DNA from: Shigella phage ESh26
Reading direction: 5' to 3' (one strand)
Sequence record: ON528736
Length of the DNA: 64,000 nt
Shown: positions 2,154-13,275 of the stretch, piece by piece
How positions within the stretch are numbered: position 1 is the stretch's first letter
Layout: each line of letters begins with the position of its first letter
Translations under genes and position numbers: made by a program
The notes under the pieces: generated by a model
The model's database searches: none
What the model saw: the letters and a program-made list of their open reading frames with translations, nothing else
Told to the model about the DNA's origin: nothing

Positions 2154-5100
2154 ATGGCCGAGATTAAAAGAAAGTTCAGAGCAGAAGATGGTCTGGACGC
2201 AGGTGGCGATAAAATAATCAACGTAGCTTTAGCTGATCGTGCCGTAGGAACTGACGGTGTTAACGTTGATTACCTAATTCAAGAAAATACAGTTCAACAA
2301 TACGATCCAACTCGTGGATATTTAAAAGATTTTGTAATCATTTATGATAACCGCTTTTGGGCTGCTATAAATGATATTCCAAAACCGGCAGGAGCTTTTA
2401 ATAGCGGACGCTGGAGAGCATTACGTACCGATGCTAACTGGATTACAGTCTCATCTGGTTCATATCAATTAAAATCTGGTGAAGCTATTTCGGTTAACAC
2501 TGCAGCTGGTAATGATATTACATTTACTTTACCATCTACTCCAATTGATGGTGATACTATCGTTCTCCAAGATATTGGAGGAAAACCTGGAGTTAACCAA
2601 GTTTTAATTGTAGCTCCAGTGCAAAGTATTGTAAACTTCAGAGGCGAGCAAGTACGTTCAGTACTAATGACTCATCCAAAGTCACAGTTAGTTTTAATTT
2701 TTAGTAATCGTCTGTGGCAAATGTATGTAGCTGATTATAGTAGAGAAGCTGTAGTTGTAACACCAGCGAATACTTATCAAGCGCAATCTAATGATTTTAT
2801 CGTACGTAGATTTACTTCTGCTGCACCGATAAATATTAAACTTCCGAGATTTGCTAATCACGGCGATATTATTAATTTCGTCGATTTGGATAAATTAAAC
2901 CCTCTTTATCATACAATTGTTACGACATATGATGAAACGACATCAGTACAAGAAGATGGAACTCATTCCATTGAAGGCCGTACATCGATTGACGGTTTCT
3001 TGATGTTTGATGATAATGAGAAATTATGGAGATTGTTTGACGGGGACAGTAAAGCACGTTTACGTATCATAACGACTAATTCAAATATTCGTCCAAACGA
3101 AGAAGTTATGGTATTTGGTGCAAATAACGGAACAACTCAAACGATTGAGCTTCAGCTTCCAACTAATATTTCTGTTGGTGATACTGTTAAAATTTCCATG
3201 AATTACATGAGAAAAGGACAAACGGTTAAAATCAAAGCTGCCGGTGAAGATAAAATTGCTTCTTCAGTTCAATTGCTGCAATTCCCAAAACGTTCAGAAT
3301 ATCCACCTGAAGCTGAATGGGTGACTGTCCAAGAATTAGTTTTTAATGGCGAAACTAATTATGTTCCAGTTTTACAACTTGCTTATATAGAAGATTCTGA
3401 TGGAAAATACTGGGTTGTACAACAAAACGTTCCAACCGTAGAAAGAGTTGATTCTTTAAACGATTCTACTAGAGCAAGATTAGGCGTGATTGCTTTAGCT
3501 ACACAAGCGCAAGCTAATGTCGATTTAGAAAATTCTCCACAAAAAGAATTAGCAATTACTCCAGAAACATTAGCTAACCGTACTGCTACAGAAACTCGTA
3601 GAGGTATCGCGAGAATAGCAACTACTGCTCAAGTGAATCAGAACACCACATTCTCTTTTGCTGATGATATTATCATCACTCCTAAAAAGCTGAATGAAAG
3701 AACTGCTACAGAAACTCGTAGAGGTGTTGCTGAAATTGCTACGCAACAGGAAACTAATGCAGGTACTGATGATACTACAATCATCACTCCTAAAAAGCTT
3801 CAAGCTCGACAAGGTTCTGAATCATTATCTGGTATTGTAACCTTTGTATCTACCGCAGGAGCTACTCCAGCTTCTAGTCGTGAATTAAATGGTACAAACG
3901 TTTATAATAAAAACACTAATAATTTAGTTGTTTCGCCTAAAGCACTGGATCAGTATAAAGCTACTCCAACGCAACAAGGTGCAGTAATTTTAGCAGTTGA
4001 AAGTGAAGTAATTGCTGGACAGAGTCAAGAAGGATGGGCAAATGCGGTTGTAACGCCAGAAACGTTACATAAAAAGACATCAACTGATGGAAGAATTGGT
4101 TTAATTGAAATTGCTACGCAAAGTGAAGTTAATACAGGAACTGATTATACTCGTGCAGTCACTCCTAAAACTTTAAATGACCGTAAAGCAACTGAAAGTT
4201 TAAGTGGTATAGCTGAAATTGCTACACAAGTTGAATTCGACGCAGGCGTCGACGATACTCGTATCTCTACACCATTAAAAATTAAAACTAGATTTGATAG
4301 TACTGATCGTACTTCTGTTGTTGCTCTATCTGGATTAGTTGAATCAGGAACTCTCTGGGACCATTATACCCTTAATATTCTTGAAGCAAATGAGACACAG
4401 CGTGGTACACTTCGTGTAGCTACACAGGTTGAAGCTGCTGCAGGAACATTAGATAATGTTTTAATAACTCCTAAAAAGCTTTTAGGTACTAAATCTACCG
4501 AATCGCAGGAAGGTGTTATTAAAGTTGCAACTCAGTCTGAAACTGTAACTGGAGCGTCAGCAAATACTGCTGTATCTCCAAAAAATTTAAAATGGATTGT
4601 ACAGAGTGAACCTACTTGGGCAGCTACTACTGCGATAAGAGGCTTTGTTAAAACTTCATCTGGTTCAATTACATTCGTTGGTAATGATACAGCTGGTTCT
4701 ACGCAGGACTTAGAGCTATACGAGAAAAATAGCTATGCAGTATCACCATATGAATTAAACCGTGTATTAGCAAATTATTTGCCATTAAAAGCAAAAGCTG
4801 CTGATACAAATTTATTGGATGGTCTAGATTCATCTCAGTTCATTCGTAGGGATATTGCACAGACGGTTAATGGTTCACTAACCTTAACCCAACAAACGAA
4901 TCTGAGTGCCCCTCTTGTATCATCTAGTACTGCTACGTTTGGCGGATCAGTTTCGGCAAACAGCACATTAACTATTTCTAATACTGGAACGGCAACTCGT
5001 CTGATTTTTGAGAAAGGACCTCAAACTGGAACTAACCCAGTACAGACGATGACTATCAGAGTTTGGGGAAATCAGTTTGGTGGCGGTTCAGATACAACAC

Positions 5101-6023
5101 GTTCTACTGTATTTGAAGTTGGTGATGAAACGTCTAATCACTTTTATTCTCAACGTAATAAAGCTGGGAATATAACGTTTAGTATCAATGGTACTGTAAT
5201 GCCAATAAATGTTAATGCTTCGGGTTCTTTGAATGCGAACGGCGTTGCAACATTTGGTAGTTCAGTTACAGCCAATGGCGAATTCATCAGCAAGTCTGCA
5301 AATGCTTTCAGAGCAATAAATGGCGATTATGGATTCTTTATTCGCAATGATGCTGCTAACACCTATTTTATGCTTACTGCATCGGGTGATCAGACTGGTG
5401 GATTTAATGGATTACGTCCTTTAGCTATTAATAATGCATCTGGTCAAGTAACGATTGGTGAAAGCTTAATCATTGCCAAAGGTGCTACTATAAATTCAGG
5501 TGGTTTAACTGTTAACTCGAGAATTCGTTCTCAGGGCACTAAAACATCTGACTTATATACCCGTGCTCCAACGTCTGATACTGTAGGATTCTGGTCAATC
5601 GATATTAATGATTCAGCTACTTATAACCAGTTCCCAGGTTATTTTAAAATGGTTGAAAAAACTAATGAAGTGACTGGGCTTCCGTACTTAGAACGTGGCG
5701 AAGAAGTTAAATCTCCTGGTACATTGACTCAGTTTGGTAACACACTTGATTCGCTTTACCAAGATTGGATTACTTATCCAACGACTCCAGAAGCACGTAC
5801 CACTCGCTGGACACGTACATGGCAGAAAACCAAAAACTCTTGGTCGAGTTTTGTTCAGGTATTTGATGGAGGTAACCCTCCTCAGCCGTCTGATATCGGT
5901 GCTTTACCATCTGATAATGCTACAATGGGGAATCTTACTATTCGTGATTTCTTACGAATTGGTAATGTTCGCATTATTCCTGACCCAGTGAATAAAACGG
6001 TTAAATTTGAATGGGTTGAATAA
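2154..6023 (+). CDS. 34: Long tail fibre proximal subunit gp34
   Basis: 1289-aa ORF, same length as T4 gp34; repeated ITPKKL/ATETRRG motifs; synteny 34-35-36-37. Confidence 0.95.
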   Translation: MAEIKRKFRAEDGLDAGGDKIINVALADRAVGTDGVNVDYLIQENTVQQYDPTRGYLKDFVIIYDNRFWAAINDIPKPAGAFNSGRWRALRTDANWITVSSGSYQLKSGEAISVNTAAGNDITFTLPSTPIDGDTIVLQDIGGKPGVNQVLIVAPVQSIVNFRGEQVRSVLMTHPKSQLVLIFSNRLWQMYVADYSREAVVVTPANTYQAQSNDFIVRRFTSAAPINIKLPRFANHGDIINFVDLDKLNPLYHTIVTTYDETTSVQEDGTHSIEGRTSIDGFLMFDDNEKLWRLFDGDSKARLRIITTNSNIRPNEEVMVFGANNGTTQTIELQLPTNISVGDTVKISMNYMRKGQTVKIKAAGEDKIASSVQLLQFPKRSEYPPEAEWVTVQELVFNGETNYVPVLQLAYIEDSDGKYWVVQQNVPTVERVDSLNDSTRARLGVIALATQAQANVDLENSPQKELAITPETLANRTATETRRGIARIATTAQVNQNTTFSFADDIIITPKKLNERTATETRRGVAEIATQQETNAGTDDTTIITPKKLQARQGSESLSGIVTFVSTAGATPASSRELNGTNVYNKNTNNLVVSPKALDQYKATPTQQGAVILAVESEVIAGQSQEGWANAVVTPETLHKKTSTDGRIGLIEIATQSEVNTGTDYTRAVTPKTLNDRKATESLSGIAEIATQVEFDAGVDDTRISTPLKIKTRFDSTDRTSVVALSGLVESGTLWDHYTLNILEANETQRGTLRVATQVEAAAGTLDNVLITPKKLLGTKSTESQEGVIKVATQSETVTGASANTAVSPKNLKWIVQSEPTWAATTAIRGFVKTSSGSITFVGNDTAGSTQDLELYEKNSYAVSPYELNRVLANYLPLKAKAADTNLLDGLDSSQFIRRDIAQTVNGSLTLTQQTNLSAPLVSSSTATFGGSVSANSTLTISNTGTATRLIFEKGPQTGTNPVQTMTIRVWGNQFGGGSDTTRSTVFEVGDETSNHFYSQRNKAGNITFSINGTVMPINVNASGSLNANGVATFGSSVTANGEFISKSANAFRAINGDYGFFIRNDAANTYFMLTASGDQTGGFNGLRPLAINNASGQVTIGESLIIAKGATINSGGLTVNSRIRSQGTKTSDLYTRAPTSDTVGFWSIDINDSATYNQFPGYFKMVEKTNEVTGLPYLERGEEVKSPGTLTQFGNTLDSLYQDWITYPTTPEARTTRWTRTWQKTKNSWSSFVQVFDGGNPPQPSDIGALPSDNATMGNLTIRDFLRIGNVRIIPDPVNKTVKFEWVE
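3540..4560 (+). repeat. Internal tandem peptide repeats within gene 34 (about six copies of a ~35-40 aa unit)
   Basis: Repeated units ...ITPKKLNERTATETRRGVAEIATQ..., ...VTPKTLNDRKATESLSGIAEIATQ...; nucleotide string actgctacagaaactcgtagaggt occurs twice. Confidence 0.7.
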
Positions 6024-6031
6024 GAGGTATT

Positions 6032-7147
6032 ATGGAAAAATTTATGGCAGAGTTTGGACAAGGATATGTCCAAACGCCATTTTTATCGGAAAGTAATTCA
6101 GTAAGATATAAAATAAGTATAGCGGGTTCTTGCCCGCTTTCTACGGCAGGACCATACGTTAAATTTCAGGATAATCCTGTTGGAAGTCAAACATTTAGCG
6201 CAGGACTTCATCTAAGAGTTTTTGACCCTTCCACCGGAGCATTAGTTGATAGTAAGTCATATGCTTTTTCTACTTCAAATGATACTACATCGGCTGCTTT
6301 TGTTAGTTTCATGAATTCTTTGACGAATAACAGACTTGTTGCTATATTAACTAGCGGAAAGGTTAATTTTCCTCCTGAAGTAGTATCTTGGTTAAGAACC
6401 GCAGGAACGTCTGCTTTTCCATCTGATTCTTTGCTGTCAAGATTTGACGTATCATATGCTGCTTTTTACACTTCTTCTAAAAGAGCTATTGCATTAGAAC
6501 ACGTTAAACTAAGTAATAGAAAAAGCACAGATGATTATCAAACTATTTTAGATGTTGTATTTGACAGTTTAGAAGACGTTGGAGCTACCGGGTTTCCAAG
6601 AAGAACATATGAAAGCGTTGAGCAATTTATGTCGGCAGTTGGCGGAACTAATAACGAAATTGCACGTCTACCAACTTCAGCTGCGATAAGTAAATTATCT
6701 GACTATAATTTAATCCCTGGTGATGTTCTTTATCTTAAAGCACAGTTATATGCTGATGCCGATTTACTTGCGCTTGGAACTACAAATATATCTATCCGTT
6801 TTTATAATGCATCGAATGGATATATTTCCTCGACACAAGCTGAGTTTACCGGGCAAGCTGGGTCTTGGGAATTAAAGGAAGATTATGTGGTTGTTCCAGA
6901 AAACGCTGTCGGATTTACGATATATGCACAAAGAACAGCACAAGCTGGCCAAGGTGGCATGAGAAGTTTAAGCTTTTCTGAAGTGTCAAGAAATGGAGGT
7001 ATTTCGAAACCCGCTGAATTTGGCGTCAATGGCATTCGTGTTAATTATATCTGTGAATCTGCTTCACCTCCGGATATAATGGTACTTCCTACACAAGCAT
7101 CGTCTAAAACTGGTAAAGTGTTTGGGCAAGAATTTAGAGAAGTATAA
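6032..7147 (+). CDS. 35: Long tail fibre hinge connector gp35
   Basis: 371-aa ORF immediately after gene 34 (9-nt gap); size as T4 gp35; synteny. Confidence 0.9.
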   Translation: MEKFMAEFGQGYVQTPFLSESNSVRYKISIAGSCPLSTAGPYVKFQDNPVGSQTFSAGLHLRVFDPSTGALVDSKSYAFSTSNDTTSAAFVSFMNSLTNNRLVAILTSGKVNFPPEVVSWLRTAGTSAFPSDSLLSRFDVSYAAFYTSSKRAIALEHVKLSNRKSTDDYQTILDVVFDSLEDVGATGFPRRTYESVEQFMSAVGGTNNEIARLPTSAAISKLSDYNLIPGDVLYLKAQLYADADLLALGTTNISIRFYNASNGYISSTQAEFTGQAGSWELKEDYVVVPENAVGFTIYAQRTAQAGQGGMRSLSFSEVSRNGGISKPAEFGVNGIRVNYICESASPPDIMVLPTQASSKTGKVFGQEFREV

Positions 7148-7152
7148 ATTGA

Positions 7153-7175
7153 GGGAGCCTTCGGGTTCCCTTTTT
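7153..7175 (+). terminator. UUCG-loop hairpin plus T-run after gene 35
   Basis: GGGAGCC-TTCG-GGTTCCC followed by TTTTT, 6 nt after gene 35 stop. Confidence 0.65.
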
Positions 7176-7178
7176 CTT

Positions 7179-7186
7179 TATAAATA
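7179..7186 (+). promoter_or_regulatory. Late promoter (TATAAATA) for gene 36
   Basis: Exact TATAAATA 24 nt upstream of gene 36 ATG. Confidence 0.8.
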
Positions 7187-7209: not shown

Positions 7210-7875
7210 ATGGCTGATTTAAAAGTAGGTTCAACAACTGGAGGCTCTGTCATTTGGCATCAAGGAAATTTTCCATTGAATCCGGCCGGTGACGATGTAC
7301 TCTATAAATCATTTAAAATATATTCAGAATATAATAAACCACAAGCTGTTGATAACGATTTCGTTTCTAAAGCTAATGGTGGTACTTTTGCGTCAAAGGT
7401 AACATTTAATGCTGGTGTTCAAGTACCATATGCTGTAAACAATACAAACCCGTGCGGTATTTATCCAGGTAATGGCGATGCAGCTACTTTTGCTACAGCA
7501 AATATTGATATTGTTTCATGGTATGGTATTGGTTTTAAATCATCACAGGGTTCAGCAGCCCGAACTGTGGTAATTAACACACGTAATGGTGATATTAGTA
7601 CAAAAGGTGTTGTGTCGGCAGCTGGTCAAGTAAGAAGTGATGCTACTGCTCCTATAGCAGCAAATGACCTTACTAGAAAGGACTATGTTGATGGAGCAAT
7701 AAATACTGTTACGGCAAATGCAAACTCTAGAGTGTTACGATCTGGTGACACTATGACAGGAAACTTAACCGCACCAAACTTTTTCTCGCAGAATCCTGCG
7801 TCTCAACCTTCACACGTTCCGCGATTTGACCAAATCGTAATTAAGGATTCTGTTCAAGATTTCGGCTATTATTAA
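7210..7875 (+). CDS. 36: Long tail fibre distal connector gp36
   Basis: 221-aa ORF, same size as T4 gp36; synteny. Confidence 0.9.
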   Translation: MADLKVGSTTGGSVIWHQGNFPLNPAGDDVLYKSFKIYSEYNKPQAVDNDFVSKANGGTFASKVTFNAGVQVPYAVNNTNPCGIYPGNGDAATFATANIDIVSWYGIGFKSSQGSAARTVVINTRNGDISTKGVVSAAGQVRSDATAPIAANDLTRKDYVDGAINTVTANANSRVLRSGDTMTGNLTAPNFFSQNPASQPSHVPRFDQIVIKDSVQDFGYY

Positions 7876-7883
7876 GAGGACTT

Positions 7884-10800
7884 ATGGCTACTTTAAAACA
7901 AATACAATTTAAAAGAAGCAAAATCGCAGGTGCACGTCCTGCTGCTTCAGTATTAGCCGAAGGTGAATTGGCTATAAACTTAAAAGATAGAACAATTTTT
8001 ACTAAAGATGATTCAGGAAATATCATTGATTTAAGCATTTCCGCTGGCGGTAATATCAGTGGAAATATCACTCAAACTGGAGATTATTTACAGAACGGTA
8101 CATATAATCTCAATGGAAATCAGTTTGTTTATGCAGGAAAATATATTGAATTTTTACCTAAAACAGCTGGTAATGGTGCATGGGCAAATCAACACCTAAA
8201 TAAAGCTCCTATCTTTACAGATTTGAGCTCAACTACTTCCGTTTCAGAATATCATCCGCTGATTAAACAACGCTATAAAGATGGAACTTTTTCTGTTGGT
8301 ACGTTAGTAAACGAAGGAAGTTTTAAAATTCATTATATCAACGAATCGGGAACTTCAAAATACTGGACATTTCGTAGAGATGGCGGATTTGTTGTTGATA
8401 CAGGAAGTTTGACAGTAACAGATGGAAATATTTCTGCTTCTGGTAATATTAATTCGGCTACTGGGGTAGTTTCTGCTCCGCAAATCAATACAAAGACTAT
8501 AGTATTTGACACAAAAGCATTTGGACAATACGATTCACAATCATTAGTTCAATATGTTTACCCTGGAACTGGTGAAACAAACGGAATCAATTACCTTCGC
8601 AAATTCCGTGCAAAATCTGGTGGTACAATTTATCATGAATTAGCTTCTGCACAAACCGGAAAAAGTGATGAACTTTCTTGGTGGACTGGTAATACAGCGG
8701 TTAATAAACAAATGGGCCTTCGCAATGATGGTTCTTTAGTATTACGACGTTCACTTGCAATTGGTACAATTACAACAGATGAAAACATCAATAACTACGG
8801 CTCCACTGGAGCAATGGGTGAATGCTATATAGTAATTGGAGACGCCGCAACAGGTGTATCATATAAAAGATCTGGTGTATACGATTTAGTTGCTAACGGT
8901 CTTTCTATAGCATCTATTACTCCTGACAGTTTCCGTAGTACTCGTAAAGCGTTATTTGGGCGTTCAGAAGACCAAGGCGGAACGTGGATTATGCCTGGAA
9001 CGAATGCTGCATTTTTATCAGTTCAAACACAGGCTGATGAAAACGCTGCTGGAGACGGCCAGACACATATTGGCTATAACTCAGGCGGAAAAATGAACCA
9101 CTATTTCCGTGGTAAAGGCAAAACTAATATTAATACTCAAGAAGGCATGGAAGTTAACCCGGGTATTCTTAAAATAGTAACCGGTGCAAATAATGTAATG
9201 TTTTATGCTGATGGCGGTATTACATCCACTAAGCAGCTTTCAATATATAATGGTGTATATTTAGCAGCTAATAATTCTACTGCTGGGCTAACATTCGCTC
9301 CAACTACTACAATTGATGGCACTAAGCAAATTTTGTGGGAAGGCGGTACTCGTGCTGGACAGAATAAAAGCTATGTAACTGTTAAAGCGTGGGGTAATTC
9401 ATTTAACGCATCTGGCGATCGTAATCGTGAAACGGTTTTTGAAGTAGCTGACGGACAAGGTTATTATTTTTATGCGCAGCGTGTAGCTCCTGCATCAGGT
9501 TCAACAACTGGAGTAATTCAATTTAGAATTGCTGGAGCATTATTAACCGGTGGGGGTATTACATCATCAGGTTCTATTGTTACTGAGTCAAGTTTAGTTG
9601 CAAATAATGGATTGTCTGTAAATGGACAAGCTAAATTTGGTGGAACAGCAGATGCATTAAGAATTTGGAATGCTGAATACGGTGCTATTTTCCGCCGTTC
9701 GGAAACTAACTTTTATATTATTCCAACTTTACAAAATGCCGGAGAATCGGGCGGTATAAGTAATTTACGCCCATTTACCATCAATCTCGCAAATGGTAGT
9801 GTTATGATGGGCAATCATACACAAGCCGGAAAAAATTTGCTTACTATTGATAACGTATCAAAATTCGTTCAAACCGATGTTAGACTTCGAGTTAATATGG
9901 ATTCTGACGCTATTGTGGTAAATGCTTCTTCTCAAGCAGCGTCTAACTTTATCCAAGGACGTAAGGCTGATGTTACAAAATGGTATTTAGGTATTGGCGA
10001 TGGCGGAAACGTCGTTCGTATGCATAATTACACCTACTCTCACGGTATTGCATTAAACTCTGATACTGTCGATATTACTAAACCTCTTAAAATTAATGAT
10101 ATTCGAATTGGTACAGATGGTAACATCACAGGTGGTACTGGTAATTTTGCCAACTTAAATACAACGTTAAATCGTAAAACCAGCGTGGGCGGTTGGGCTG
10201 GTAGTTCTGTTGACGGATGGTATAAATTTGCTACGGTAACAATTCCTCAGGGTACTGGTACAGTGACTTTTAAGATTTCCGGCGGCGCTGGTTTTAATTT
10301 TAAAAGCTATGGCCAAGCTTCTGTTGCAGAAATAGTTCTTCGCACAGGTAATAATAATCCTAAAGGCATAAACGCTGTACTGTGGAATAGGTCAGACCTG
10401 AGTTTTAATCAGATAGCTACTATGAATACATCTGGCGATACTTATGATGTATACGTGTTCTGTGCCGGTTATACAAATGCATTAGTGGTTGAATATTCCT
10501 GTAGTGAAAACTCTTCAGTAACCGTAGTCGGTCTTAACGGAGGCATTCAGCCAGTTGTTGATGCATTGCCTGAGGGACATGTTGTAGGTAAAACAGTTCG
10601 TCTGTTAAATAATATTGGCGGAACTTTCGCAGCTGGAGAATCTAACATTGTTACTCGCGGTGAATACGTTACTGATAATCAAAAAGGCATGCGTATTAAA
10701 TCTAACGGTAATAATATCGGTTCTAACGCAGCTTTAATTAGAAATGATGGCGGAAGTTTTTATATTTTAGCTACAGATAAAAATACGGAAGAAAAACCCG

Positions 10801-11762
10801 ATGCAGCTAATGGTGATTGGAATGGCTTAAGACCTTTCTCTATTAATATGACTGATGGCCGCGTTGGTATGAACCATGGGTTGAATATTACTGGTGGTGG
10901 ATTAAACGTTACTGGCGGTAATACTAACTTAGGTAATATTAGCTCAAGACTAGTTTCATACGCCCGCGCAGCATCTGGATGGGGAGATACCTCAGATGCC
11001 ATGAAATCTAAAATCACCTTTATGGCAGATCATGGTGATTTATCTAATTCAGGTAGTTATTATCCTATTGTCGGTGCATGGAGTAACTATGGTTCAGCGG
11101 GTTATCGTCAAACCTTTGAGTTCGGATGGGTCGGTTCCGGCACTACAGCGGGTTGGCGCGATGGTATTATTCGTATTCGCGGAGATAATGCTAATGGCCA
11201 GCAAGCAAGATGGCGCTTTACAATGGACGGTACTTTAGATTGCCCTGGTAAAGTACTGCTACCACAAACAGGTGCCTTTGGTGTCAATACATCAAATGGT
11301 CTAGGTGGAAATAGTATAACATTTGGTGATAGCGATACTGGTATTAAGCAAAATGGTGATGGATTATTAGACATATATGCGAACAGCGTACAAGTATTCC
11401 GTTTCCAAAACGGTGATTTGTACTCATACAAAAATATAAATGCTCCAAACGTTTATATTCGTTCTGATATTCGTTTAAAATCCAACTTCAAACCTATCGA
11501 AAATGCGCTTGATAAAGTTGAAAAACTTAACGGTGTCATTTACGATAAAGCTGAATACATCGGTGGAGAGGCAATTGAAACTGAAGCGGGTATTGTGGCT
11601 CAAACGTTGCAAGACGTTTTACCAGAAGCTGTCCGTGAAACAGAAGACAGCAAGGGTAATAAAATACTCACTGTTTCTTCTCAAGCCCAGATTGCTCTTC
11701 TAGTTGAAGCTGTGAAAACACTTTCTTCTCGTGTAAAAGAACTTGAATCTAAACTTATGTAA
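7884..11762 (+). CDS. 37: Long tail fibre distal subunit gp37, T2-type with C-terminal intramolecular chaperone domain
   Basis: 1292-aa ORF (T4 gp37 is 1026 aa); C-terminus ...SDIRLKSNFKPIENALDKVEKLNGVIYDKAEYIGGEA... has the S-D-x-R-L-K autocleavage signature of fibre chaperone domains. Confidence 0.9.
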   Translation: MATLKQIQFKRSKIAGARPAASVLAEGELAINLKDRTIFTKDDSGNIIDLSISAGGNISGNITQTGDYLQNGTYNLNGNQFVYAGKYIEFLPKTAGNGAWANQHLNKAPIFTDLSSTTSVSEYHPLIKQRYKDGTFSVGTLVNEGSFKIHYINESGTSKYWTFRRDGGFVVDTGSLTVTDGNISASGNINSATGVVSAPQINTKTIVFDTKAFGQYDSQSLVQYVYPGTGETNGINYLRKFRAKSGGTIYHELASAQTGKSDELSWWTGNTAVNKQMGLRNDGSLVLRRSLAIGTITTDENINNYGSTGAMGECYIVIGDAATGVSYKRSGVYDLVANGLSIASITPDSFRSTRKALFGRSEDQGGTWIMPGTNAAFLSVQTQADENAAGDGQTHIGYNSGGKMNHYFRGKGKTNINTQEGMEVNPGILKIVTGANNVMFYADGGITSTKQLSIYNGVYLAANNSTAGLTFAPTTTIDGTKQILWEGGTRAGQNKSYVTVKAWGNSFNASGDRNRETVFEVADGQGYYFYAQRVAPASGSTTGVIQFRIAGALLTGGGITSSGSIVTESSLVANNGLSVNGQAKFGGTADALRIWNAEYGAIFRRSETNFYIIPTLQNAGESGGISNLRPFTINLANGSVMMGNHTQAGKNLLTIDNVSKFVQTDVRLRVNMDSDAIVVNASSQAASNFIQGRKADVTKWYLGIGDGGNVVRMHNYTYSHGIALNSDTVDITKPLKINDIRIGTDGNITGGTGNFANLNTTLNRKTSVGGWAGSSVDGWYKFATVTIPQGTGTVTFKISGGAGFNFKSYGQASVAEIVLRTGNNNPKGINAVLWNRSDLSFNQIATMNTSGDTYDVYVFCAGYTNALVVEYSCSENSSVTVVGLNGGIQPVVDALPEGHVVGKTVRLLNNIGGTFAAGESNIVTRGEYVTDNQKGMRIKSNGNNIGSNAALIRNDGGSFYILATDKNTEEKPDAANGDWNGLRPFSINMTDGRVGMNHGLNITGGGLNVTGGNTNLGNISSRLVSYARAASGWGDTSDAMKSKITFMADHGDLSNSGSYYPIVGAWSNYGSAGYRQTFEFGWVGSGTTAGWRDGIIRIRGDNANGQQARWRFTMDGTLDCPGKVLLPQTGAFGVNTSNGLGGNSITFGDSDTGIKQNGDGLLDIYANSVQVFRFQNGDLYSYKNINAPNVYIRSDIRLKSNFKPIENALDKVEKLNGVIYDKAEYIGGEAIETEAGIVAQTLQDVLPEAVRETEDSKGNKILTVSSQAQIALLVEAVKTLSSRVKELESKLM

Positions 11763-11763
11763 A

Positions 11764-11781
11764 AGAGGGCTTCGGCCCTCT
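11764..11781 (+). promoter_or_regulatory. UUCG-tetraloop hairpin between genes 37 and 38
   Basis: AGAGGGC-TTCG-GCCCTCT, 2 nt after gene 37 stop, followed by AAGGA Shine-Dalgarno of gene 38. Confidence 0.6.
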
Positions 11782-11792
11782 AAGGATTTTTA

Positions 11793-12587
11793 ATGGCAAT
11801 TGTAGGTGTTCCTGGCTGGATTGGTGAATCTGCCGTGAATGAAACTGGACAACGTTGGATGGATGCTGCGATGAGAGCAGTTCGTGTTTCAGTTCCTGGT
11901 TGGATGAGCTCAATGGCCGGACAATCTAAAGAAGTATATTACAGCATTGGTGCTAGCAATTCTTATAATAAAGACACACTAATAAATTATCTCAAATCTC
12001 AAGGTAGTACTCCTGTTGTTGTTACTATTACTGGTAACTTAGTTTCTTCATCTGCCGGGCAACCTTGCTTAGATTTTCCTAGTTCATTAACTAATGCTTA
12101 TGTAACGCTTATTATAAATGGCGGTGTAACAGTATATGGTCGCGGAGGACGCGGCGCGCAAGCGGGAAACCAGGCGGGTGAAGCTGGTGGTACTGCAATT
12201 AACAATGGTATAGGTACTCGTCTACGAATCACTAACAATGGAGCGATTGCTGGCGGCGGTGGCGGCGGTGGCGCCCAATCAACTGATAATGGATGGGGAG
12301 GTAAATATGTTTCTGGCGGCGGCGGCGGACGTCCTTTCGGAGCTGGTGGTAATAATGGAGCAAAAGCTCCGGGTGCATCAGCATCTTTAACATCTCCAGG
12401 CGCAGGCGGAAAAATGTATTCCGGCGTTGGATACTACGGTGGTGACGGTGGTAATGTTGGTGAACGAGGTAAGGATGCGGTTAGATTGAACGGCTATTCG
12501 AACTCACCTGGCGCAGCAGGTAAAGCTGTTACTGGTAATGCTCCAACTTGGACTAAAGTTGGTACAATATATGGTGCAAGAGTATAA
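11793..12587 (+). CDS. 38: gp38, T2-type tail-fibre tip adhesin with glycine-rich motifs
   Basis: 264-aa ORF with poly-Gly blocks (GGGGGGGAQ, SGGGGGRPFGAGG) between variable segments; position after 37. Confidence 0.85.
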   Translation: MAIVGVPGWIGESAVNETGQRWMDAAMRAVRVSVPGWMSSMAGQSKEVYYSIGASNSYNKDTLINYLKSQGSTPVVVTITGNLVSSSAGQPCLDFPSSLTNAYVTLIINGGVTVYGRGGRGAQAGNQAGEAGGTAINNGIGTRLRITNNGAIAGGGGGGGAQSTDNGWGGKYVSGGGGGRPFGAGGNNGAKAPGASASLTSPGAGGKMYSGVGYYGGDGGNVGERGKDAVRLNGYSNSPGAAGKAVTGNAPTWTKVGTIYGARV

Positions 12588-12618: not shown

Positions 12619-13275
12619 ATGGCAGCACCTAGAATATCATTTTCGCCCTCTGATATTCTGTTTGGTGTTCTAGATCGCTTGTTCAAAGATAACGCTACCG
12701 GGAAAGTTCTTGCTTCCCGGGTAGCTGTCGTAATTCTTTTGTTTATAATGGCGATTGTTTGGTATAGGGGAGATAGTTTCTTTGAGTACTATAAGCAATC
12801 AAAGTATGAAACATACAGTGAAATTATTGAAAAGGAAAGAAATGCACGCTTTGAATCTGTCGCCCTGGAACAACTCCAGATAGTTCATATATCATCTGAG
12901 GCAGACTTTAGTGCGGTGTATTCTTTCCGCCCTAAAAACTTAAACTATTTTGTTGATATTATAGCATATGAAGGAAAATTACCTTCAACAATAAGTGAAA
13001 AATCACTTGGAGGATATCCTGTTGATAAAACTATGGATGAATATGCAGTTCATTTAAATGGACGTCATTATTATTCCGACTCAAAATTTGCTTTTTTACC
13101 AACCAAAAAGCCTACTCCCGAAATAAATTACATGTACAGTTGTCCATATTTCAATTTGGATAATATCTATGCTGGAACAATAACCATGTACTGGTATAGA
13201 AATGATCATATAAGTAATGACCGCCTTGAATCAATATGTGCTCAGGCGGCCAGAATATTAGGAAGGGCTAAATAA
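12619..13275 (+). CDS. t: Holin T
   Basis: 218-aa ORF MAAPRISFSPSDILFGVLDRLFKD... with one N-terminal TM segment; size and position as T4 t. Confidence 0.92.
   Translation: MAAPRISFSPSDILFGVLDRLFKDNATGKVLASRVAVVILLFIMAIVWYRGDSFFEYYKQSKYETYSEIIEKERNARFESVALEQLQIVHISSEADFSAVYSFRPKNLNYFVDIIAYEGKLPSTISEKSLGGYPVDKTMDEYAVHLNGRHYYSDSKFAFLPTKKPTPEINYMYSCPYFNLDNIYAGTITMYWYRNDHISNDRLESICAQAARILGRAK

Follow-up and report, generated by a model that had tools for sequence, protein, structure and literature searches.

Shigella phage ESh26 carries a T2-type receptor-binding module: a gp37 ending in a predicted self-cleaving chaperone domain and a glycine-rich gp38 adhesin

We have analysed the tail-fibre gene block of Shigella phage ESh26, a Tequatrovirus of 167,539 bp isolated from sewage (ON528736; PMC9686686), in a 64,000-nt stretch of this record which, taken as a whole, is referred to here as the window. 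The + strand of the window carries a long-tail-fibre operon of the T-even type in the canonical order g34-g35-g36-g37-g38-t, as identified from open reading frames (ORFs) and Pfam matches. The genes of primary concern are g37 (7884-11762, + strand), encoding the precursor of a T2-type distal long-tail-fibre subunit with Pfam matches to Gp34_trimer, gp37_trimer and Peptidase_S74, and g38 (11793-12587, + strand), encoding the 264-aa predicted adhesin of the tail-fibre tip with matches to GP38 and Gp38_N, the two being separated by 30 nt and followed by the t holin gene. A preliminary description made from the letters and ORFs had placed a T2-type receptor-binding module here, with a gp37 of 1292 aa and the motif S-D-I-R-L-K starting at nucleotide 11463; the ORF has this length and the motif occupies its residues 1194-1199. 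We hold with high confidence that this region of a Tequatrovirus encodes the end of a T2-type long tail fibre that binds the receptor, module and receptor accounts being taken jointly, and nothing in the window sequence contradicts this. The gp37/gp38 module is already known, a textbook feature of T2-like phages, and the phage belongs to a known lineage. Exact protein look-up finds both products deposited under ESh26, gp37 as URY13526.1 and gp38 as URY13527.1, the latter with the label 'hypothetical protein'.

The last 99 residues of gp37, from Ser1194 to the C-terminus (aa 1194-1292; 11463-11759, + strand), constitute a predicted intramolecular chaperone and autocleavage domain, assigned from Pfam PF13884, PDB matches and near-identity to T2, that would be removed after trimer folding. 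Peptidase_S74 (PF13884, 'chaperone of endosialidase') aligns with aa 1194-1251 over the full length of the model (1-58 of 58; E 3.5e-15) with a score of 56.5 bits, the cutoff being 22; the proposal that SDIRLK is an intramolecular-chaperone signature is thus upheld, the motif not being a chance occurrence. When the last 129 aa were searched against solved structures, the Salmonella phage S16 gp37 chain 6f45_A was matched with SDRRIK opposite SDIRLK (E 5e-6), and a match was also obtained to the MYRF autocleavage domain 7dc3_A (E 7.5e-4); the comparison with chaperone domains suggested in the preliminary description thus returned similarity. The domain lies at the C-terminus of a protein with fibre trimerisation domains (Gp34_trimer, gp37_trimer) upstream. 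Within the motif itself (11463-11480, + strand), the Ser/Lys(+5) spacing predicts Ser1194 (11463-11465) as nucleophile and Lys1199 (11478-11480) as general base, a five-residue spacing equal to that in T5 pb1, where Lys1269 activates the scissile Ser1264 (PMC4690869).

The position of the predicted cut is indicated by alignment of NVYIR^SDIRLK with the S16 site DLNVS^SDRRIKK, the equivalent bond here being Arg1193-Ser1194. In S16, the gp37 chaperone is reported to be autocleaved at DLNVS^SDRRIKK once trimerised, exposing the docking surface for gp38 (PMC7917993). Alignment to the S16 site and identity to T2 predict a mature gp37 of aa 1-1193 (7884-11462, + strand) with the end ...NAPNVYIR, a tip which we predict, from its sequence, to be the docking surface of gp38. 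The resemblance to T2 is close: aa 1100-1193 are identical in T2 gp37 and S1282A is the single difference over aa 1100-1292, and T2 gp37 yields the same S74 match in Pfam while the 1026-aa T4 gp37 yields none. C-terminal processing of T2 gp37 is the topic of Drexler, Riede and Henning 1986, with cleavage at the C-terminus reported. Because of this near-identity to the experimentally studied T2 protein, cleavage is predicted for gp37 of ESh26 also; together with the S16 site alignment, the homology supports the C-terminal autoproteolysis that had been implied at the outset.

The gp38 protein belongs to the adhesin family of T2-type phages, as had been proposed. It matches Pfam GP38 (PF05268) over the whole model (218 of 218; 245 bits, E 8e-73) and Gp38_N (PF21721; 64.6 bits, E 8e-18), and among solved adhesins the PP01 gp38 receptor-binding domain 9v85 (E 2e-55) and S16 gp38, 6f45_D (E 8e-46). 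BLASTP against the T4 gp38 chaperone detected no similarity, the best hit covering 6 residues (E 0.8), and the alignment called for earlier places gp38 with the T2, T6, PP01 and S16 adhesins, not with the T4-type chaperone. By analogy with these homologues, gp38 would sit on the fibre tip of the virion and determine the receptor. In GenBank, many homologues of this adhesin carry the name 'distal long tail fiber assembly catalyst', the function of T4 gp38, or 'hypothetical protein'. Such labels, including that on the identical ESh26 protein, are annotation errors.

Two regions are distinguished within gp38. The first, an attachment and linker region of the T2 subtype (aa 1-113; 11793-12131, + strand), contains Trp9, Trp22 and Trp37, which, like the glycine blocks, are invariant in an alignment of the ESh26, KRT47, PP01, T2, T6 and S16 proteins; in S16 gp38 the attachment tryptophans form 'prongs' that insert into gp37 (PMC7917993). 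The second is the receptor-binding domain (aa 114-264; 12132-12584, + strand), in which conserved Gly-rich motifs (aa 116-121, 132-133, 154-160, 175-186, 203-205 and 217-226) alternate with variable segments. Glycine makes up 22.6% of gp38 and forms uninterrupted runs of seven (G7, aa 154-160) and five residues (G5, aa 175-179). The alternation was quantified with 41 related loci from IMG/VR, from which 36 distinct full-length gp38s were aligned: the mean conservation per column ranges from 0.71 to 0.79 within the main Gly-rich motifs (aa 114-122, 132-160, 175-186 and 217-226) and from 0.22 to 0.44 between them (aa 123-131, 161-174, 187-202, 207-216 and 227-241). This pattern, which bears out the description of a 264-aa protein with poly-glycine blocks and variable segments, agrees with the GRM/HVS architecture of gp38 put forward by Trojet et al. 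(PMC3157838). The matches to PP01 (62% identity in the receptor-binding half) and S16 suggest that the C-terminal half adopts a polyglycine-II sandwich fold.

Comparison with T2, the adhesin system of Riede, Drexler and Henning, places the two phages close together in gene order, which is the same, in the first 46 residues of gp38, which differ at one position, and in the g37/g38 intergenic hairpin and ribosome-binding site, which are identical. The proteins diverge elsewhere, gp37 being 49 aa shorter than in T2 with divergent blocks at ~aa 450-750, and 77% identical over its full length. Across aa 1-113, gp38 is 75% identical to T2 and 42-46% identical to PP01, T6 and S16, a T2 subtype consistent with the T2-type tip of gp37. 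PP01 gp38 is reported to be compatible with T2 gp37 only when the first 113 residues of the PP01 protein are swapped for those of T2 gp38 (PMC12892980). Identity to T2 falls to 58.5% in the receptor-binding half of the ESh26 gp38, so that a different receptor is expected.

Over aa 114-264, the receptor-binding half, gp38 is 100% identical to that of Shigella phage KRT47 and 62% identical to that of Escherichia phage PP01. The whole protein is 99.6% identical to gp38 of KRT47, ime09 and ECP2301, 99.2% to that of Sf22 and 98.9% to that of CrRp10, so that relative to the Tequatrovirus ime09 group (Shigella phages KRT47 and Sf22, Escherichia phage ime09, Citrobacter phage CrRp10) the range is 98.9-99.6%. 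Sf22 and KRT47 require OmpC, and mutations in OmpC loop 5 and loop 7 impair their adsorption, according to Tinney et al. 2022 as cited in PMC12892980 and PMC11654681. PP01 and S16 gp38 also bind OmpC (PMC12892980), and PP01 gp38, whose receptor-binding domain (9V85) recognises the OmpC of E. coli O157, is the best-scoring solved structure. Because the receptor-binding half is identical to that of KRT47, and KRT47 and Sf22 are reported in those citing papers to require OmpC, OmpC is the most likely receptor of this gp38 allele. The same allele, identical or nearly so over aa 114-264, is found in phages isolated on Shigella, E. coli and Citrobacter rodentium. The kinship of gp37 is different: its DNA has its nearest counterparts in SH-2, SH-1 and CrRp10 (98.3-98.5% identity), whereas the protein is 85% identical to the 1276-aa KRT47 gp37, which is strongly divergent at aa 51-200 (blocks of 16-28% identity); ESh26 carries a gp37 of the SH-2/CrRp10 type.

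The comparison with Shigella phage SH-2 (locus L048) delimits a variable cassette at gp38 aa 161-241 (12273-12515, + strand), which contains four of the five variable segments (161-174, 187-202, 207-216 and 227-241), the fifth (aa 123-131) lying outside it. The SH-2 protein is 100% identical over aa 1-160 and shows one change, A262S, over aa 242-264, while aa 161-241 are divergent; correspondingly, DNA identity across gp38 drops from 99-100% to 52-68% within the cassette and then recovers. The difference looks like a clean natural cassette exchange, delimited by the G7 motif on one side and the conserved C-terminal motif on the other. This exchange, which starts at HVS2, parallels an engineered gp38 swap 'from HVS2 onwards' by which porin specificity was switched, in a study in which single substitutions in the variable loops were also able to do so (bioRxiv 10.64898/2026.04.02.716166). 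This parallel supports the loops as carriers of specificity. The variable loops between the Gly motifs are likely the specificity determinants, as anticipated in the preliminary description, a view also supported by the conservation profile and by the two studies cited for the architecture and the swap (PMC3157838; bioRxiv 10.64898/2026.04.02.716166). Tentatively, and with somewhat less than even confidence, we suggest that ESh26 and SH-2 together could define a minimal cassette for porin or loop specificity, and could also account for a host range that crosses genera through a conserved OmpC epitope.

Combined, these observations lead us to propose a six-step scheme. gp37 would be produced as a 1292-aa precursor whose last 99 residues act as a trimeric S74-type intramolecular chaperone, aiding the folding of the distal fibre into a trimer. 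Once the trimer has folded, Ser1194, activated by Lys1199, would cut the Arg1193-Ser1194 bond and the chaperone would depart, and the newly bared tip ...NVYIR would bind the N-terminal domain of gp38 through its conserved tryptophans. The C-terminal half of gp38, a putative polyglycine-II sandwich, would then contact an outer-membrane porin through protruding variable loops, the porin for this allele most likely being OmpC. The analysis itself shows the ORFs and domain matches, the conserved catalytic residues, the pattern of conservation, the near-identity to proteins already characterised and the natural exchange of the cassette; cleavage, docking geometry and receptor identity are the parts of the scheme that we infer. 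Several points weigh against it: the S74 mechanism also requires upstream residues of neighbouring subunits, while the catalytic residues considered here are Ser1194 and Lys1199; cleavage, the location of gp38 on the virion and the receptor are all deduced from sequence; and the dependence of Sf22 and KRT47 on OmpC is taken from two citing papers, PMC12892980 and PMC11654681, and concerns whole phages, not gp38 alone.

Other arrangements can be set against this scheme. Were the module organised as in T4, the gp37 tip itself would bind the receptor and gp38 would be an assembly chaperone absent from the virion, in keeping with the label 'distal long tail fiber assembly catalyst' still borne by several homologous gp38 records (ime09, SA21RB and T6 among them). 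The chance of this is close to nil: gp38 is dissimilar to T4 gp38 (BLASTP E 0.8) and matches solved adhesin structures, the Collar and Phage_fiber matches found near the C-terminus of T4 gp37 are absent here while T4 gp37 is without the S74 domain, and the T4 RefSeq note itself calls gp38 of the T2 subfamily unrelated, and the adhesin. The genes are syntenic with those of T4, and the N-terminal two-thirds of gp37 are homologous (47% over aa 1-815); the T4 gp37 tip binds the receptor itself, and T4 gp38 is an unrelated chaperone of 183 aa without a Pfam match. The contrast with T4 drawn initially (a 1026-aa gp37 and a chaperone gp38) therefore holds. It could also be argued that the S74-like domain is an uncleaved folding helper that stays on the fibre while gp38 binds elsewhere, cleavage in this phage being a prediction. 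We give this very little credence, the catalytic Ser1194 and its partner Lys1199 at +5 both being intact and the domain differing by one residue from that of T2, whose gp37 is reported as processed; moreover, in S16 it is cleavage that bares the gp38 docking site (PMC7917993).

A third alternative leaves the module as described and replaces the primary receptor, with OmpF or FadL as for T2, or OmpA or Tsx, in place of OmpC. We regard it as unlikely, while giving it some weight: both the N-terminal domain of gp38 and the tip of gp37 belong to the T2 type, single loop substitutions can switch the porin (bioRxiv 10.64898/2026.04.02.716166), and the need of Sf22 and KRT47 for OmpC is taken from citing papers only. 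Against it stand the complete identity of the receptor-binding half to KRT47, compared with 58.5% to T2, and the OmpC-binding PP01 gp38 as the best-scoring solved structure.

The association between the two proteins extends beyond this phage. In 43 of the 46 gp38-bearing loci, the motif pattern S[DE].[RK].K locates S-D-x-R-x-K in the upstream gp37, at a distance of 92-117 aa from its end, and a further two carry S-D-x-S-x-K, a CC31-type variant that falls outside the pattern. The gp38 adhesin and the S74-ended gp37 travel as one module. In the two CC31-like loci (L020, L024), S-D-x-S-x-K replaces S-D-x-R-x-K at the predicted cleavage site of gp37. In the ECD7-like locus L018, gp38 has no long ORF ending immediately before it, an arrangement that could fit the displacement of gp38 from gp37 described for the genus Krischvirus (bioRxiv 10.64898/2026.04.02.716166).

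A set of IMG/VR contigs (loci L038-L041 and L043-L047) encodes short gp38 relatives of 155-174 aa. The part they have in common with gp38 is the N-terminal attachment domain only (~aa 1-45), the Gly-rich receptor-binding half being absent, and yet S-D-x-R-x-K is present in the gp37 that precedes them. In the gp37 of L044-L047, collagen-like G-x-x repeats lie directly upstream of this motif.

The same architecture is present in S16, of the genus Gelderlandvirus (PDB 6F45), with S-D-x-R-x-K in the gp37 chaperone and tryptophan attachment and polyglycine domains in gp38. The S16 gp38 is 47% identical, its gp37 is much shorter at 749 aa, and its chaperone is 112-113 aa long compared with 99 aa here. 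The S74 chaperones of K1F endosialidase, the L-shaped fibre protein T5 pb1 and MYRF belong to the same Pfam family, with a serine, a lysine five residues downstream and a C-terminal position on a trimeric fibre. In K1F and T5, however, the mature protein itself binds the receptor, whereas here, as in S16, removal of the domain is predicted to make a docking site for a separate adhesin.

The remaining genes of the block, all on the + strand, are g34 (2154-6023), g35 (6032-7147) and g36 (7210-7875), identified as ORFs with Pfam matches, and the t holin gene (12619-13275; Phage_holin_T, E 1.9e-117), which forms the downstream edge of the module. Within the phage collection, the first 25 kb of the window are matched best by SH-2 and CrRp10 (~97% identity). 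Further upstream in gp37, aa 508-633 match Pfam Gp34_trimer (E 1.7e-14) and aa 443-675 match PDB 4uxe and 5nxf (E ~4e-15). This homology to the gp34 C-terminal trimerisation domain indicates modules common to the proximal and distal fibre halves. In gp35, the fibre hinge protein (6032-7147), aa 58-127 match Pfam ILEI (PF15711, interleukin-like EMT inducer) at 34.3 bits against a curated cutoff of 27 (E 3.4e-8).

Candidate expression signals accompany these genes. An exact match to the T4-type late promoter consensus, TATAAATA, occurs upstream of g36 (7179-7186, + strand) and a second copy is found at 2112, upstream of g34, although the count of this consensus in the window is not above chance. 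Its position, together with what is known of T4 late promoters, makes 7179-7186 the probable start of a g36-g37-g38-t late transcript. Between the g37 stop and the g38 Shine-Dalgarno sequence, folding and a terminator-like scan reveal a C(UUCG)G tetraloop hairpin, AGAGGGC-TTCG-GCCCTCT (11764-11781, + strand), with the Shine-Dalgarno AAGGA (11782-11786, + strand) directly 3' of it. A hairpin is kept at this junction in T6, PP01, S16 and T4 with differing stem and loop sequences. The T4 hairpin falls between the Shine-Dalgarno and the ATG, whereas the one here lies upstream of the Shine-Dalgarno. The folding energy of the 11764-11781 region is not exceptional relative to shuffles (z -1.02), and recurrence across phages is all that is noteworthy about this hairpin. 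A second C(UUCG)G tetraloop hairpin is present in the g35/g36 intergenic region (7151-7172). Sigma-70 promoter matches were discarded, 19 being obtained in the scan compared with 21.3 in shuffles, and Rfam and tRNA searches of the window found nothing.

With respect to phage biology, these results add nothing new, the exact gp37 and gp38 proteins being already in GenBank. With respect to annotation, ESh26 gp38, at present a 'hypothetical protein', should be named a receptor-recognising adhesin. The prediction of OmpC as the receptor helps in picking phages with different receptors for Shigella cocktails.

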